From the IMG/VR virus record IMGVR_UViG_3300034684_000282: a stretch of 64,000 nt of DNA, one strand, 5' to 3'. Positions 18,596-59,906 of the stretch are shown here, piece after piece (the stretch's first letter is position 1; each line of letters opens with the position of its first letter). This DNA comes from an uncultured virus (IMG/VR IMGVR_UViG_3300034684_000282). Lineage: Duplodnaviria; Heunggongvirae; Uroviricota; Caudoviricetes. The notes beneath the pieces are model-generated. The model made no database searches, was not told where the DNA came from, and was given only the letters and a program-made list of their open reading frames with translations. Position numbers and translations under genes: made by a program.

Positions 18596-19759
18596 ATGCA
18601 CATAGACAAGGACCTCGTACAGAAGGCTGTCGACGAAGCCTTTGAGAAGATCATAAAGGAAAACGAGAGTTACGACGACAGCGAGGTAATATACTCCGAC
18701 GAGCCTAAGCCGGAGTTGAAAGAGATGCCCGAAGAGGATAAAGTAGAGGAAGAGGAAAACGTAGAAGACAGGGTGGAGGAAGAGGTTGAGGAAGCCATCG
18801 GTGAAAACTCAGACTTTAACTTTCTCGGCTTAGACATCAGTATTGAGAAGACCGAGAACGGTAAGTTCAACGTTAAGATAACGAAGGCCGACAAGGAGAA
18901 AGTTGAGGTACTAGACGTGGCTGACCTTCCGAACATCCTCGGCTTGATAGAGGACTTCTTCAACGAGTTAGTCTTAGAAGACACAAAGAGCGGTGAGGGT
19001 GAGGAAGACGAAGCGGAGAGTGACGAGGAGATCTCCGAGTTAAACGAGGAAGACGACTCCGACGAGGACGAGCCTGTTGAGCAAGAGTTTGAAGACGAGC
19101 TAACCGAAGGCTACCGAGCTTCAGGCTACCACACCTCGCTAGCCTCACTGCGAAGAAAATATGGGAGTAGGGTAGAGGAGATTCTAGAGCACGGGTTGCT
19201 GGCTAAGGAGTTAGCGCTGGAGATGGTTAAGGGTAACTTAGTTAAGGGCACAGTTAAGGAGCTAGTCGACACAGTCAGGGAGAAGGACGCTCTGATCGCC
19301 GCTAAGAAAACCGATCTGCGGAAGTCAAGCGTTAGGTACCTCTACGCGAAGAAGATGGAGAGTAGCCTGAAGAAAGCCAGCGCCGTGCTGGGGTCGGCGA
19401 TCGTTGACTTGAGCAAGCAAGTAAACAGCAGGCGGGTGTCGCCTGAGTTGGCGCGGAAGGCTGTGAAGAGGTACAAGTCTATCATAGCCGCGATCGTCAA
19501 CGCTAACAGTCCTAAGACCGTACTGGCTGCTACCGCCGCGGTGGGTAAGGTACGAAACGCTGTTTTAGCAAATGTTAACAAAAGTAAAATTAAACCCGAC
19601 AGGAGTAGGAGTGTTAACACTGAGTTTAGGCCGAGAAATGTACTGAACAGGACTGGAAAGACTGCCAACTCGACTCTACTCTCCGGTAGGCGATATGACG
19701 GAATCGACGAGATGAGCGCTGAGATCCTGCGGATTGCAGGCATCACTGGTAACAGTTAG
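18596..19759 (+). CDS. Prohead scaffolding protein (gp22-like)
   Basis: Acidic N-half and basic C-half, C-terminal ILRIAGI, immediately before the MCP. Confidence 0.7.
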   Translation: MHIDKDLVQKAVDEAFEKIIKENESYDDSEVIYSDEPKPELKEMPEEDKVEEEENVEDRVEEEVEEAIGENSDFNFLGLDISIEKTENGKFNVKITKADKEKVEVLDVADLPNILGLIEDFFNELVLEDTKSGEGEEDEAESDEEISELNEEDDSDEDEPVEQEFEDELTEGYRASGYHTSLASLRRKYGSRVEEILEHGLLAKELALEMVKGNLVKGTVKELVDTVREKDALIAAKKTDLRKSSVRYLYAKKMESSLKKASAVLGSAIVDLSKQVNSRRVSPELARKAVKRYKSIIAAIVNANSPKTVLAATAAVGKVRNAVLANVNKSKIKPDRSRSVNTEFRPRNVLNRTGKTANSTLLSGRRYDGIDEMSAEILRIAGITGNS

Positions 19760-19809
19760 CTTACCAACATTTTAAACTAAACTACATAAACAAGGAGTGT
19801 AACGCAACT

Positions 19810-21819
19810 ATGGACAGAAAAGACTACACGGCTCTCCTGTCAGAGAGAGTCTGGCCCAGGGTTGAGAGACAGCTTTTGGGTGGAATCGCTGACAGGGGGC
19901 TTCAGAGAAACTTGAAAACTGTTCTCGCTAACACGAGAAACGCGCTTTTGGCTGACACGTCAATGCAGAACATGGTATACCTCAGTGTGGGGTCATTTTA
20001 GCGAGAGCTAAAATAGCAAATCGGGTGAATTGCTGGGACTCTTTAGAGCCTCTAGTGCTACAGCGTAGTCGGTAACGACAAGCGCGAAAGCTCTAAAAAA
20101 CTTAGAGGATTAGGGAATCAGCAGCCGAGCAGCCAGTACACTGGTTGAAGGTCCAGAGACTACCGGAGAGATGCTCTTAGTTCTTAAGAGCGAGTTCTCT
20201 TAATAACCGGCTAGAGCGCCCGACCCTTAGTTATAAAGCTAAGGTGAAGATATAGTCCATCCCACAGCGAAAGCTGCGGACAAGATGCCCGAAAATTGTA
20301 CTACCGTTAGTTAGACGTCTCAACGTAGGGACCGCTGTAGGGTAACCTACAGTTGCAAATTCGGTGAATTGCTGGGAGCCTTTAGAGCCCTCGGTGCTAC
20401 AGCGTAGCTGGCAACGGCAGGCGCGAACGCTCTAAAAAACCGTAGGGATTAGGTAATCAGCAGCCAAGCTCCCGAAAGCGCAAGATAGTAGGGAGAAGGT
20501 TCAGAGACTAGAGGTTGAGCCAGCGCAGGCAATAACACCTCCTCGAGCGCCGAATAACTAAAGCAGTATAGCTTTAGTTAATGATATAGTCCACTCTAGG
20601 GTGAAAGCCTTAGGTAGAGTGCTTTCCAAAACTGATTGCGAATCAGATTATCTCGGTTCAGCCGCTCAACGGACCAACTGGGTGGATTCGGTTCCTTGAC
20701 GCATTTGTTGAACACATTAATCCAGCTACTGGCAACGTAAACATCTACCCCTGGTCTCAGGGTGACAGCACGTACTCTACACCGCAGAATGATTTAACGG
20801 TTGAAATTTCAGCTGATGGTACTGACACAAACTATACTGGAGTACTAAAAGACAGCGATAATAATATACTGGTACCGTCGGAGGGAACGCTCTTTGTGGA
20901 GATTGAAAGTTCCTCCGGTACGTGGACGAAGATAGCCGAGGCTGACAGGAGTGGAGTGCTTCACTCTCTGAGTTCCGCCTATAAAGTTATAGGTGTCGTT
21001 GACCCTAAAACACAAGAGTTTGTCGTTAACGTTACAGACTCAGCCGGCACCGTAGTCGGAAAAGCGCTTCGCTTTGCCTTTAAGGAAGACATTCAGAAGA
21101 ACATCCCGTTCGGCGACGGTAAGACCTACAACACGATGCGGTTTGAGATCACCAAGATCGCCGTCGAGGCTAAGACCCGTAAGCTGGGTGCCACGTACAG
21201 CTTCGAGCTCATGGAAGACTACAAGAACGAGTTCGGTGAGAACTTCGAGGACAAGATGGTCGACTACCTAACCACGACTATTCTGACGGAGGTCGACAGT
21301 GAGGTAATCGACACGCTGTTCAGTAAGGCTACCGTAAGCGGTTCTTGGGACGCCACGATGCCGATGACGTGGACTCGCGGTATCAACCAGTGGTACGAGA
21401 CGGTGCTGCCGAAGATAAACAAGCTGAGCAACTACATCTACCAGGCAACCCACGTCTCCGGAGCAACGTTCCTGGTCTGCAGCCCCGTTACGGCTACCAT
21501 CTTCCAGAGCCTGATGCAGTTCAGCGGTAACGGTACGCCGACCGACCAGATGAACGTCGGTACCGTCAACATCGGTACGCTCAGCGGCGTGTACAAGGTG
21601 TTTACGTCGCCGCTCTGCCCCGACAACAAGGTTCTGCTTGGGTTTAAGGGAAGCAAGCCTGAGGACACCGGAGCGGTGTACGCTCCGTACGTTCCGGTAC
21701 AGCTCCACCCAATCTACTACTCCGAAGGCATGCCCTCGGTCATGGCCAGGACCCGTTACTGGCTGGGTGTACTGCGGCCCGACTACTACGGGGTACTCAA
21801 CATCAACGGCACCATTTAG
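19810..21819 (+). CDS. Major capsid protein (gp23-like), spliced: join(19810..19982,20288..20320,20622..21819), 467 aa
   Basis: Splicing restores NMVYLPKIVLPLVRRLFPKLIANQIISVQPLNGPTG; exon 3 is open and in frame with 20896..21819 (EAKTRKLGA, YAPYVP, TRY). Confidence 0.93.
19983..20287 (+). ncRNA. Group I intron 1 in the MCP gene (305 nt, no ORF)
   Basis: P AATTGCTGGGA, Q AATCAGCAGC, R GTCCAGAGACTA, S AAGATATAGTCC; P1 ACCUCA/UGGGGU with a U.G pair at the 5' splice site; terminal G20287. Confidence 0.92.
20321..20621 (+). ncRNA. Group I intron 2 in the MCP gene (301 nt, no ORF)
   Basis: P AATTGCTGGGA, Q AATCAGCAGC, R GTTCAGAGACTA, S ATGATATAGTCC; P1 GUCUC/GGGAC with a U.G pair; terminal G20621. 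Confidence 0.92.
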
Positions 21820-28703: not shown

Positions 28704-29607
28704 GAGACGCCTCTCCAGGGTTAACGTGCTGGGTAATTCTCTGGAGCATCTCGTCACTCAGTTCAAACTTACCGTTGGTCTTCTCCAACTTAAACGCCGT
28801 GTCTCTAAACTTAGAGCGAAACGTACTTTCGTCGGTATTCTTACTAAACACAACCCAGAGCTCGTCTAGAGTGTTTAGTAGCCCCTGCCGGACAGCCCTG
28901 GGGATAGTGTTTAGGATCTTTCTGTGCACGTGTTCTAGATAGTCTTCGGGAACTACGCGGTCCCTAGTCTTGTTACGTATCTTAGCCAAGTCAATACTCG
29001 TGACTACCCAAACTAGGGCAACCCTGTAGCCTAAGTCTTTAAACAAGCGTGTGTTTAAAACTAGCTCTTCAACGTTGTTACCGGTCGTGTCTATCACGAA
29101 GTTCTGAAGTTTCTTTCCCGAACTTCTTAGAAAACTGTCTAGCGCTTTGCTAAACAGATGTCTTTTCCAGCTAGTATATTTATGCAGCTCCTCCATGTCT
29201 CGAGGGTTCTTTGGGTCCGGCAGCCTACCGCCGTACGGTTCTAGAATCTGCTCCTTAACTCTCGGACTAGTCTCCGGGCTGTTGACTAGCTTTTCTAGCA
29301 GCTTAACGTACAGCATCTTTATGTTGTCGCTGTCTAACACCTTGGCGTCGATTAAAAGTTGGTTCCTAATAGTGTACGACTTGCCGGACCCCGGTCCACC
29401 GCACGTAAACACGGCCCAACCGCTTCTAGGGTACGGCTGGTTTCCAAACTTTACGGCTGAGTCTTCGACTACACCGACTAAGTTATACCTAGTGTTTTGC
29501 AGCGTCGCTTTAATTAAATCATGTAGTTTGTCTGGCACTGGTACGTACCTCCTACGTAGTGAAAAACTCTTCATACAAAAATCTATGACTATACGGTAGT
29601 TCGTCAA
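28696..29607 (-). CDS. Zeta-toxin/AAA_33-like P-loop kinase (start probably GTG 29538)
   Basis: GGPGSGKS, DSD, VIDTTG, RNKTRDRVVP. Confidence 0.8.
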   Translation of the reverse strand: MTNYRIVIDFCMKSFSLRRRYVPVPDKLHDLIKATLQNTRYNLVGVVEDSAVKFGNQPYPRSGWAVFTCGGPGSGKSYTIRNQLLIDAKVLDSDNIKMLYVKLLEKLVNSPETSPRVKEQILEPYGGRLPDPKNPRDMEELHKYTSWKRHLFSKALDSFLRSSGKKLQNFVIDTTGNNVEELVLNTRLFKDLGYRVALVWVVTSIDLAKIRNKTRDRVVPEDYLEHVHRKILNTIPRAVRQGLLNTLDELWVVFSKNTDESTFRSKFRDTAFKLEKTNGKFELSDEMLQRITQHVNPGEASHG

Positions 29608-50115: not shown

Positions 50116-51227
50116 GACACCACCCTTCGCTTGCTTAATAGTTTTACTGCCTCGTTTATTTTGTGTGAAAAATACACTAAAACTGCGGCAGATTTAGCAT
50201 TTTTTCGCAGTATTTGTGTGTATTCTAAGTCGTTCCCCTTGTACATGTCTAAGTGAAGGAGTTTGTAGAGTTCTCTTTGGTCGTACTTGAGCTTTCTCTC
50301 GAAAGTTTCCCTCTCTATAGTAGAGTTTACCCTGTATACGAACGGGTTTTCTAAGTTTGACAAGTCAATGACTGACTGGTTGCTCTGAATCAACCTTTTG
50401 TTACCGCTGTCTGACAAGACAGTCTTAAAGTTTTCTAGCAGTCTCTTATCCCTACTACTCAGCCCGTCGGCGTAGTTGCCTAAGATACTAGAAACACTCT
50501 TCTCTAGCTCACCAACGCTGCTAACAGTAGCTTTATCCCCGTACACGCTGTCGATAACGTTAAACACTCTAGAGACCTTCTTCCATCCCCAATTGTACAG
50601 CCCGCTTACACTGTCACTCTTGTCACCGACTATAGACTTCGCTAAGGCGTAGTTACGGTGGCTGAAGCAAGCGTCAAGCTTGTACTTGCTACACCAGTTG
50701 TCGACCGTAACTTCCCCCTTGTACCAGTCAAAAATGGTAGTATCCTCGCCCAGCAGCTGCACAAAGTCTGAGTCACTCGACGCTACGATAAACCTTGCCT
50801 TGTCGTCTAGTCTTCTTAGGTACCTGGTTAAAACGTAAACAATCAGATCCGCTTCCGTATTCTTTACGTCGATGAACGGAAACGGCAGAGTGTACACGAC
50901 TTTCTTAAGGTACTCAACGTAACTCTTTTCTTTCTCCTCGTTGGTTAAACTCTTAAACCTCTTGCTACCACTCTTATAACCGCTTAGAATCGCCGTAGCT
51001 CTCCTGTTGTACCCGTTGTCGGAGCAGATATATATTAAGTTTGGCTTAAGCTCACTTACCAAGTCAGTTATCCTGTTTATCAAGCTAACAGTTAAACCGG
51101 TGACTAACTCCGCCTCGTCTAGACTAGAGATGTCTCGCGAGTACGTGTAGCGCTTTACAAGGTTAAGCCAGTCGACTATAAGGTACTTCACCCTACTCTC
51201 CTTCTTAGAAAACACAAGGGTAGACAC
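50112..51227 (-). CDS. 5'-3' exonuclease / T4 RNase H (FEN-like)
   Basis: LIVD, YK, EAD, SSDSDFVQL, GDKSDSV.G. Confidence 0.88.
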   Translation of the reverse strand: MSTLVFSKKESRVKYLIVDWLNLVKRYTYSRDISSLDEAELVTGLTVSLINRITDLVSELKPNLIYICSDNGYNRRATAILSGYKSGSKRFKSLTNEEKEKSYVEYLKKVVYTLPFPFIDVKNTEADLIVYVLTRYLRRLDDKARFIVASSDSDFVQLLGEDTTIFDWYKGEVTVDNWCSKYKLDACFSHRNYALAKSIVGDKSDSVSGLYNWGWKKVSRVFNVIDSVYGDKATVSSVGELEKSVSSILGNYADGLSSRDKRLLENFKTVLSDSGNKRLIQSNQSVIDLSNLENPFVYRVNSTIERETFERKLKYDQRELYKLLHLDMYKGNDLEYTQILRKNAKSAAVLVYFSHKINEAVKLLSKRRVVS

Positions 51228-58537: not shown

Positions 58538-58720
58538 ATGGAAATATTAAAACCAAAAGAAGTTTCAGTTATGTTAAATGTAGCTGTAAGTACTTTACAG
58601 TATTGGGACAGGATTGGTAAGTTAAAAGCTTTTCGTACGGTTAATAACAGAAGATATTATACAAAAGAACAAATTGACGAATTTAAAAGATTTTATTATG
58701 GTGTTGATCGCGATGAATAA
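58538..58720 (+). CDS. MerR-type HTH (like the IS607 TnpA N-terminal domain, no recombinase domain)
   Basis: LKPKEVSVMLNVAVSTLQYWDRIGKLKAFRTVNNRRYYT; AAGGAG RBS. Confidence 0.8.
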   Translation: MEILKPKEVSVMLNVAVSTLQYWDRIGKLKAFRTVNNRRYYTKEQIDEFKRFYYGVDRDE

Positions 58721-59906
58721 AGAATCATACCGCTGTGATTTTTGTGGTAAGTCTTTTGCTATAAAAGATAATTTATATCGTCATTTGTCAAAAAATAAAG
58801 ACTGCTATGATTTCTACTACCACGATAAAGTGGAAAATATAGATTATGTGACATGTAGAATATGTGGTAAAAGACTAAGTCGCATATTTGAACAGCACCT
58901 TAAAACGCACGGTATGACAACTGAAGAGTATAGGTTGCTTTTTCCTGACGCTGTGCTAACGGCGCAGGAAACTAAAGATAAGCGAAAGCAAACTAATTTA
59001 GAAAGATACGGCGTTGAAAACCCTTTTGTGGTGAAAGAGATTAAAGAAAAAGTGAAACAAACATTTTTAGAAAGATACAATGTTGAACACCCAATGCAAA
59101 TAAAAGAAGTAAGAGATAAATTTAAACAGACATGCTTAGAAAGGTACAGCGTTGAAAACCCAGCGCGATCTGAAGAAATAAAAAATAGAATTAAACAGAC
59201 ATGTTTAGAAAGATACGGCGTTGACTCTCATTTTAAATCACAAGAAGTGAGGGATAAAATTAAGCAAACATTTCTAGACAGGTACGGCGTTAAGAATCCA
59301 CTGCAAATAAAAGAAGTACGAAATAAAATTAGACAAACAAATTTAGAAAAATACGGGGTAGAGTATCCACTACTTTCAGAAGAAATTCAAGATAAAATAA
59401 AGCAAACCAATTTAGAAAGATACGGAGTAAAATATATATCACAAGTAAAAGAAATACAAAATAAAATTAGAAACACAATGCTGCAAAAATATGGTGTATA
59501 CTATAATTCCATGCCATGTTTTTCATTAAACTCACAGGAATTATTCACTTCTATAGAATTAATATTATCAGACATGTATCCAGATTTAGAATGCTTCTAT
59601 GCTACTAATAAAGAAATAGAGTTGGGTGGAAAATTAGTTACAAATGAATATCAAGTATTAGTTGAATCTGTTTCAGATAATAAAAAAGTTAGATTTTTAG
59701 ACTTTTATATACCAGCACTAAAGAAGTGGATTGAATTCGATGAGAGTTATCATGATAATATTGATCAATTAAATGATGATAAAATAAGAGAACAAGAAAT
59801 AAAAGCAGTGATTCCTGGTATTGAATTGTTACGAATTAAAGAAGAAGATTATTTAAACAACAAGGGTCATACGGTTGAAAAGTGTATTGACTTTATTTTA
59901 AGTTAA
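58713..59906 (+). CDS. Putative homing endonuclease: Zn fingers, 8 KQTxLERYGV repeats and a Vsr-like domain
   Basis: CDFC..HL, CRIC..HL..H; 23-aa repeats; FLDFY..WIEFDESYH..D..RE..LLRI. Confidence 0.8.
   Translation: MNKESYRCDFCGKSFAIKDNLYRHLSKNKDCYDFYYHDKVENIDYVTCRICGKRLSRIFEQHLKTHGMTTEEYRLLFPDAVLTAQETKDKRKQTNLERYGVENPFVVKEIKEKVKQTFLERYNVEHPMQIKEVRDKFKQTCLERYSVENPARSEEIKNRIKQTCLERYGVDSHFKSQEVRDKIKQTFLDRYGVKNPLQIKEVRNKIRQTNLEKYGVEYPLLSEEIQDKIKQTNLERYGVKYISQVKEIQNKIRNTMLQKYGVYYNSMPCFSLNSQELFTSIELILSDMYPDLECFYATNKEIELGGKLVTNEYQVLVESVSDNKKVRFLDFYIPALKKWIEFDESYHDNIDQLNDDKIREQEIKAVIPGIELLRIKEEDYLNNKGHTVEKCIDFILS
58986..59507 (+). repeat. Eight ~69-bp coding tandem repeats
   Basis: KQT(N/F/C)LERYGV(E/K)xP units. 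Confidence 0.85.

Follow-up and report, generated by a model that had tools for sequence, protein, structure and literature searches.

In an uncultured myovirus, two group I introns without open reading frames split the major capsid gene, of the gp23 type, and belong to an apparently mobile intron family

The stretch of DNA analysed here, 64,000 nt of an uncultured virus (IMG/VR record IMGVR_UViG_3300034684_000282; Caudoviricetes) that is called the window in its full length, carries at positions 19810-21819 a gene predicted from its sequence to encode a major capsid protein (MCP) of the T4 gp23 type, which is split by two group I introns without an open reading frame (ORF) on either side of an exon of only 33 nt. 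The reading for which we argue, and to which we assign a probability of roughly 0.9, is that both introns are members of a mobile family and as such selfish rather than regulatory elements. The region under study is composed of the following features, with a slash marking the point of insertion in a coding sequence.

19810..19982, + strand: capsid gene exon 1, with ATG at 19810, 57 codons and the CT of Leu58; aligns with residues 1-58 of uninterrupted homologues
19983..20287, + strand: intron A, 305 nt, ORF-less, at site A (Leu58, CT/C); RF00028 76.0 bits; splice joints in RNA contigs
20288..20320, + strand: micro-exon of 33 nt, (L)PKIVLPLVRR(L), in frame, inside the Pfam Gp23 domain; present in record 2 of RNA run X19
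20321..20621, + strand: intron B, 301 nt, ORF-less, at site B (Leu69, CT/C); RF00028 90.1 bits; splice joints in RNA contigs
20622..21819, + strand: capsid gene exon 3, with the C of Leu69, 398 codons and the stop; Pfam PF07068 Gp23
20677..20688, + strand: empty site C, ACT GGG/TGG, Gly89/Trp90; filled in the nearest public record, G001

Joined as 19810-19982, 20288-20320 and 20622-21819, the three exons give 1404 nt, that is, 467 amino acids (aa) plus stop, with ...MQNMVYL-PKIVLPLVRRL-FPKLIANQ... reading across the two junctions. The spliced protein is colinear and free of gaps over both junctions with eight uninterrupted homologues, in which the consensus across the same segment is ...MQNM[VIT]YLPKIV[LI]PLVRRLFPKLIAN... 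and a counterpart of the micro-exon, PKIV[LI]PLVRRL, is present throughout (8/8). A first-pass annotation of the stretch had proposed a Leu codon interrupted as CT/C in the same phase at both sites, an in-frame 33-nt exon encoding PKIVLPLVRRL in between and a spliced product of 467 aa, and all of this is borne out, with the product aligning contiguously with gp23 homologues. Exon 3 by itself matches Pfam PF07068 Gp23 over profile positions 16-347 (E 6.5e-56); it also matches PHROG 138, a major head protein (E 8.1e-48). In an intronless relative (L001, 82% identical) the Gp23 domain match begins at residue 60, so that the 11 residues encoded by the micro-exon lie within the family domain, and the capsid sequence equally finds the solved T4 gp23 structures (E 1e-19), where the micro-exon stretch is aligned to conserved T4 gp23 residues. 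To a gene caller, the + strand from 19810 offers an ORF of 63 codons and, further on, one of 307 aa that is closed at 21819; the spliced reading corrects an annotation in which only these 63-aa and 307-aa fragments of the capsid gene are given.

Both inserts are recognised over the entire length of the Rfam group I intron model RF00028 (Intron_gpI; model length 253; gathering score 50 bits), with intron A matched at 19973-20279 (76.0 bits, E 1.7e-17, model 1-253) and intron B at 20309-20613 (90.1 bits, E 9.7e-22, model 1-253). As the model begins in the 5' exon, in P1, and stops short of the last few intron bases, the boundaries 19983-20287 and 20321-20621 fit these matches, and the delimitation of two complete ORF-less group I introns in the first-pass annotation proves exact and, with both introns above the gathering score, is upheld by the covariance model. 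The exon base before the cut is T at 19982 and 20320 and the last intron base is G at 20287 and 20621; guide strands, GGGU in intron A and GGAC in intron B, are located 7-12 nt inside each intron and pair the exon U with G, and a terminal G is found in all 14 family introns taken from other loci. No + strand ORF of at least 30 aa lies within intron A or intron B, while read-through from exon 1 into intron A meets a stop after 6 codons (TAG, 19999-20001) and read-through from the micro-exon into intron B after 8 codons (TAA, 20343-20345).

The structure of the ribozymes is equally reflected in folding and covariation. Each intron folds more stably than all of its 100 shuffles (z -4.27 for intron A and -3.25 for intron B), and when eight short members of the family are aligned, 33 of the 65 consensus pairs prove to have changed on both sides without loss of pairing; the P7 strands in this alignment are invariant and hence uninformative, and the P3/P7 pseudoknot cannot be drawn by RNAalifold. 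Furthermore, P1 covaries with the exon that it binds. At site A, exon ACCU stands opposite guide GGGU in the window and AUCU opposite GGAU in the related locus L011; at site C, ACGGGU/GCUCGU is replaced by AUGGGU/GCUCAU (L010, L011) and by GCGGGU/GCUCGC (L013). The two introns of the window had been described as twins, and related they are, with near-identical cores; at an identity of only ~62%, however, their likeness had been overstated, and they are paralogues rather than the outcome of a recent duplication. Model alignment and folds place hairpin-forming inserts of ~47 nt (A) and ~35 nt (B) between P7 and P3', and by our reading of this extra paired insert, not by a classifier, introns A and B probably belong to subgroup IA. 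The introns in td, nrdB and nrdD of T4 are of subgroup IA2. In a permissive Rfam scan over all 64 kb of the window no third intron was found. A sub-threshold match to the Rfam family Ocean-VII sRNA at 50409-50461 (- strand; 20.3 bits vs a gathering score of 53.5 bits, E 0.17) is most likely due to chance.

The steps by which the capsid protein would be made from such a gene can be outlined as follows. A late transcript would contain two independent ribozymes, each binding guanosine, which would attack after the U of the P1 U.G pair in the first of two transesterifications; in the second, the exons would be joined behind the terminal G of the intron. The early in-frame stops would keep ribosomes off the ribozyme cores; both excisions would be required, and the capsid protein would be encoded by the doubly spliced mRNA only. 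By analogy with known group I introns, excision would occur by self-splicing without the help of proteins.

The stretch occurs in public sequencing runs, seven of which are recorded as RNA, and all or nearly all sampled words of the region are present in four independent DNA runs. Splicing was assessed in two metatranscriptomes of one study (X7 and X8), a metatranscriptome of another study (X19) and a DNA run (X10) whose sample is shared with X19, all of them in the form of assembled contigs, with rare forms being lost upon assembly. The joint 19982^20288, at which 305 nt are skipped, is contained in all three RNA runs (X7, X8, X19) and the joint 20320^20622, with 301 nt skipped, in two of the three (X8, X19); both junctions had been predicted in the first-pass annotation, and neither is found in the contigs of DNA run X10. 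Record 2 of X19, 1346 nt in length, consists of exon 1, micro-exon and exon 3 in direct succession, and a 924-nt DNA contig of X10 is unbroken over 19700-20565, through intron A into intron B. This DNA contig and the spliced X19 record share all nine listed exon-1 variants (19851-19944), so that the spliced RNA and the intron-bearing DNA appear to originate from the same strain. The suspicion that the inserts are assembly errors, or that the capsid gene is a decayed pseudogene, can arise from the three fragments seen by gene callers; it carries practically no weight, as the structure recurs in independent DNA runs, in the X10 contig and in G001, with intact ribozyme cores, an exactly restored frame and spliced RNA contigs.

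A third joint, 19982^20622, by which the micro-exon would be skipped, is not listed among the contigs of X7, X8, X19 and X10, although contigs cannot show absence. The first-pass annotation had suggested alternative splicing by this route and, arithmetically, the product would indeed stay in frame; it would, however, be deprived of 11 near-invariant residues. The same phase of the two introns, the 33-nt length of the exon and the relatedness of the two ribozymes speak for a programmed skipping that leads to a functional capsid variant without PKIVLPLVRRL, as does a report of skipping among three similar introns of one gene of phage Twort (PMC3073962), a citation by which the idea is also deprived of its novelty. 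On the other hand, eight of eight uninterrupted homologues have the 11 residues unchanged or nearly so, the T4 gp23 residues to which they align are conserved, no homologue without them is among those fetched, and the joint is absent from the three RNA runs, a weak argument as contigs lose rare forms. We consider programmed skipping highly improbable, and micro-exon skipping, if it occurs, is best seen as a by-product.

The distribution of the introns was followed in 16 viral and 25 metagenome loci of relatives, with at least six of the metagenome loci duplicating viral ones; exons were placed in these relatives by tblastn and the junctions then read from the sequence. Three insertion sites, spaced 33 and 63 nt, lie inside 32 codons (96 nt): site A in Leu58 (CT/C), site B in Leu69 (CT/C) and site C between Gly89 and Trp90 (GGT/TGG). 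Among the 16 viral loci, nine are without intron, two have an intron at A, one at B and six at C, with two loci carrying two introns, and RF00028 scores above threshold in six of the 16. The occupancy by locus is as follows.

No intron: L001, L004-L009, L014, L016
Short intron at A: L015
Long intron at A (1330 nt) and long intron at C (1243 nt): L011
Long intron at B (1372 nt) and long intron at C (1241 nt): L012
Long intron at C (1236 nt): L010
Short intron at C (282-285 nt): L002, L003, L013
Additional metagenome loci with intron at A: L020, L021 (contigs begin within the intron)
Additional metagenome locus with intron at B: L025 (short)
Additional metagenome loci with intron at C: L023, L036, L042, L043

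The ribozyme parts of these introns group by site and not by genome (support 1.00 for A and 0.93 for B), and the introns are more alike than the genes in which they reside: intron A of the window is 97% identical to that of L015 at 86% identity of the coding sequence, intron B is 92% identical to that of L025 at 74%, and the ribozyme of intron C of G001 is 96% identical to that of L002 at 75%. Presence and absence at identical sites combined with introns more alike than their host genes is, as far as sequence comparison can tell, the signature of a mobile intron, and the distribution of the introns tracks horizontal transfer and not phage phylogeny.

The long copies point to the vehicle of such a transfer. 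Their extra ~950-1070 nt are located at the P8 hairpin loop of the short copies and contain ORFs of 260-310 aa with an N-terminal zinc finger (C-x2-C...H-x3-H) and a C-terminal nuclease part (PD...E-x-K). The zinc finger shows weak matches to ROS/MucR, while the nuclease part matches Pfam Phage_endo_I at or near the cut-off (E 1e-6 to 1e-8), PHROG endonuclease and resolvase families and, weakly, structures of T7 endonuclease I (E 0.015). Endonuclease ORFs of this kind reside in intron A of L011, intron B of L012 and intron C of G001, L010, L011 and L012, and the proteins are 25-29% identical between sites A, B and C. In L010 the site-C endonuclease gene (L010:2120-2937) has decayed, with a frameshift splitting it into ORFs of 141 aa and 137 aa, and in L042 (L042:1-491) only the last ~24 codons of a site-C endonuclease can be recognised upstream of that intron's 3' end. 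The family accordingly displays all stages of a homing cycle, namely the empty site, the endonuclease-bearing intron, the intron with a decaying endonuclease and the ORF-less intron, and the two introns of the window, which have no endonuclease gene, can be regarded as derived copies whose movement would depend on help in trans.

A search of G001 with the A and B endonucleases of the relatives found no dedicated site-A or site-B enzyme; it retrieved only the endonuclease of its own intron C and a free-standing ORF, the latter matched at its zinc-finger end. In the window, a free-standing ORF of 410 aa at 58674-59906 (+ strand) combines C2H2 and ROS/MucR-type zinc fingers with a match to DUF7487 (E 6.5e-45) and, weakly, one to a PvuRts1I-like nuclease; with an N-terminus resembling the intron endonucleases of the relatives (32-41% over 40-125 residues), its product is a candidate free-standing homing endonuclease. 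A further observation concerns record 13 of X8, a 1198-nt contig of an RNA library, which matches 20106-20235, that is, intron A up to the P8 loop, and continues with ~1070 nt unlike the window; it may represent an endonuclease-bearing variant of intron A in that community.

All words sampled from the window recur in the nearest public record, G001, which is rated complete at 89,471 bp, and over window positions 35-64000 the two are the same except for intron C and two synonymous bases adjacent to it, with no difference at all in window 20684-64000. Intron C of G001 (1233 nt, L045:1121-2353) occupies site C and holds an intact ORF of 259 aa for a putative zinc-finger/PD-(D/E)xK endonuclease; the G001 ORF in the capsid gene is 60% identical to the site-C endonuclease used as query. 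RF00028 matches the intron in two parts (5' part 49.1 bits, 3' part 28.9 bits), and a weak Rfam match at G001 28977-29072 is the 3' part of this same intron. The two bases differ directly upstream of site C, where the window reads ACT GGG and G001 ACG GGT; the G001 bases are precisely those needed by P1 of intron C, as they place a U in front of the cut and pair with GCUCGU, while the closest relatives of the window (L015, L020, L021) have ACTGGG and are without intron C. The simplest reading is that homing recently brought intron C into the G001 lineage and that the bases next to it were co-converted in the process, with a loss of the intron or a mixed population assembled differently as less simple alternatives. 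The capsid gene of G001 contains three introns, as many as the most intron-rich MCP gene in published descriptions of crAss-like phages. At the other end of the comparison, bases 1-34 of the window are T/A-rich, and 13 of them differ from G001; the source contig of the window probably ends here.

Taken together, the reading put forward at the outset envisages one intron family that would have colonised three sites where the capsid gene is most conserved and, for that reason, best targetable for homing. Among related phages the family would have spread by homing through the zinc-finger/PD-(D/E)xK endonucleases predicted in the P8 loop, and the window would display late homing stages at sites A and B, with the endonuclease gene lost, next to an empty site C. 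Varying occupancy, intronless relatives and endonuclease-bearing orthologues argue for selfish mobility; equally, close relatives whose capsid genes have no intron, a single one or different ones arrive at the same protein, which argues against a conserved regulatory need.

Several considerations weigh against this account. The evidence for splicing is derived from metatranscriptome contigs and not from reads, and such libraries can contain DNA; a joint could in principle stem from an intronless strain, as intronless DNA alleles exist in relatives. The shared variants and the DNA contig from the same sample argue against such an origin without excluding it. Record 8 of X7 joins exon 1 to the micro-exon and then continues unspliced through intron B, and this record is evidence neither for an order of splicing nor for a strain without intron A and with intron B, since an exon of 33 nt cannot be phased with 31-letter words. 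Furthermore, the assignment to subgroup IA is our own reading of the P7-P3' insert in the model alignment, and the contrast at site C could reflect co-existing variants or assembly choices in a mixed population instead of a dated event.

A regulatory role had been suggested in the first-pass annotation, by which the two obligatory splicing steps would act as a GTP/Mg-sensitive checkpoint gating capsid output by the nucleotide or ion state of the cell. The arrangement itself can be quoted for it, as the most abundant virion protein can be produced only once the two introns have been taken out, and so can the contig depth in X19, where pieces of the excised intron B reach 10-34 vs 6.3 for the mRNA contig, a depth that is no measure of expression. 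However, intron presence is variable, many relatives are intronless, and close relatives produce the protein with zero, one or other introns; the distribution by horizontal transfer and the endonuclease genes in orthologous introns are equally at odds with a checkpoint, for which we find no support and which we judge very unlikely.

A different proposal complements the preferred reading of selfish, mobile-family introns rather than opposing it. The ORF-less introns A and B might be kept as they destroy the cognate endonuclease sites, by which a co-infecting relative with the endonuclease-bearing versions would be prevented from cutting the capsid gene, and intron C of G001 would in turn attack intronless competitors by interference competition. 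Endonuclease-bearing A, B and C introns in related phages of similar habitats are in line with this proposal, as are the empty and the filled site C in otherwise identical genomes of the same population, the hint at a long intron A in the same community given by the 1198-nt contig of X8 and an intron endonuclease described for phage competition in PhiPA3 (PMC11620839). On the other hand, any insertion of an intron protects its site automatically, which is no sign of selection, and nine of the 16 viral loci are intronless, so that we rate retention for protection as conceivable and rather doubtful. With a similarly tentative outlook, well short of an even chance, the N-terminal segment of the capsid gene might be considered a battleground, with one retargeted family at three sites, a diverged endonuclease of its own for each site, homing caught by the pair of G001 and window with two bases as the visible tract of co-conversion, introns A and B making the gene uncuttable and the intron load deciding the outcome of mixed infections.

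Group I introns in capsid genes are not without precedent. The first-pass annotation had placed the classic phage group I introns in genes of nucleotide and DNA metabolism, and a restriction of such introns to these genes is outdated by published accounts of capsid-gene introns (PMC3706429, PMC7886860, PMC10136315). The capsid genes of the lactococcal phage Tuc2009 and the mycobacteriophage LittleE carry group I introns, in the case of LittleE with reverse transcription PCR and N-terminal sequencing (Pope et al. 2013, PMC3706429), and are comparable to the gene described here by an intron in the highest-expressed virion gene, U before and G at the end of the intron, splicing at the RNA level and the existence of both endonuclease-bearing and endonuclease-less relatives. 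These phages differ as siphoviruses with one intron per gene and ORFs of the LAGLIDADG/HNH type instead of PD-(D/E)xK (PMC3706429). In the Delta and Zeta groups of crAss-like phages, group I introns have been reported in major capsid genes (Yutin et al. 2021, PMC7886860; PMC10136315), with one MCP gene from a Zeta-group phage in five fragments with three intron-type inserts (PMC7886860, PMC10136315). These reports share with our case a capsid gene of uncultured phages with several group I introns, with three inserts as in G001; on the other hand, the capsid lineage is another one, and the introns there, according to these accounts, have been recognised mainly via endonuclease domains, whereas here the gene is gp23-type, two of the introns are ORF-less and the junctions are seen in RNA contigs.

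As in Twort, in which three similar introns are found in one gene and transcripts without an exon have been described (PMC3073962), several related short group I introns reside in one phage protein gene, close enough for skipping to be conceivable. Phage family and gene are different from those of Twort and, here, the skippable segment is near-invariant and no skipped product is found in the contigs. Alternative spliced variants have been described in Bastillevirinae (PMC11878797) and splicing with metatranscriptome support in gut jumbo phages (PMC12880540).

Closer to gp23 itself, the intron-bearing genes given in the available text of a review of the T4 family are limited to td, nrdB, those of the nrdD type and gene 43, with gene 23 not among them (PMC2993671). 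The introns in T4 td, nrdB and nrdD (sunY) resemble those of the window by belonging to RF00028, by an apparent extra element of the P7.1/P7.2 type and by early in-frame stops, and equally by a homing cycle in which endonuclease genes are found truncated or lost and free-standing endonucleases may mobilise introns in trans; they differ by their location in genes of nucleotide metabolism and by enzymes of the GIY-YIG or HNH type (PMC2993671). A literature search, covering mostly titles and the beginnings of abstracts, found no published intron in a gp23-type capsid gene.

PD-(D/E)xK homing endonucleases of group I introns are known from other hosts, I-Bth0305I of a Bacillus phage being one of them. 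Another one is encoded in the intron of the Synechocystis tRNA-fMet gene, as tabulated in PMC3073962 (Table 1). The long relatives of the window introns are alike in encoding a putative PD...E-x-K nuclease and differ by the N-terminal C2H2 zinc finger (ROS/MucR-like) and the position in the P8 loop, with such a gene being absent from the introns of the window.

Capsid-gene introns, multiple introns per phage gene and exon skipping, as far as the accounts cited extend, have all been published before, and no new mechanism is opened here. What is above routine is the intron family at three sites together with the intron-plus/intron-minus pair. The gp23-type capsid genes of environmental myoviruses join the list of structural genes invaded by introns, and the relatives document the homing cycle at three adjacent sites in a small natural series with a near-isogenic pair among its members, which would be convenient for studying the retargeting of endonucleases and intron-mediated competition between phages.

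The phage that harbours the gene is an uncultured myovirus of ~89 kb distant from cultured phages. Its top capsid match among GenBank phages is at 29% identity, with all 2573 matching records below 60%, and the DNA of the window introns finds 17 records of GenBank phages, in which only short segments of the conserved core are matched and none covers 80% of the query. The capsid gene has as its neighbours genes for the portal, the head maturation protease, the large subunit of the terminase, tail sheath, tail tube and a B-family DNA polymerase. Within the capsid gene, the spliced RNA contig of X19 is of the same length as the window and diverged from it over 293 nt at 20788-21082, with flanks that match, which suggests that this domain has diversified between strains or recombined; the segment coincides with the most variable part of the capsid homologues, by alignment position a surface insertion.

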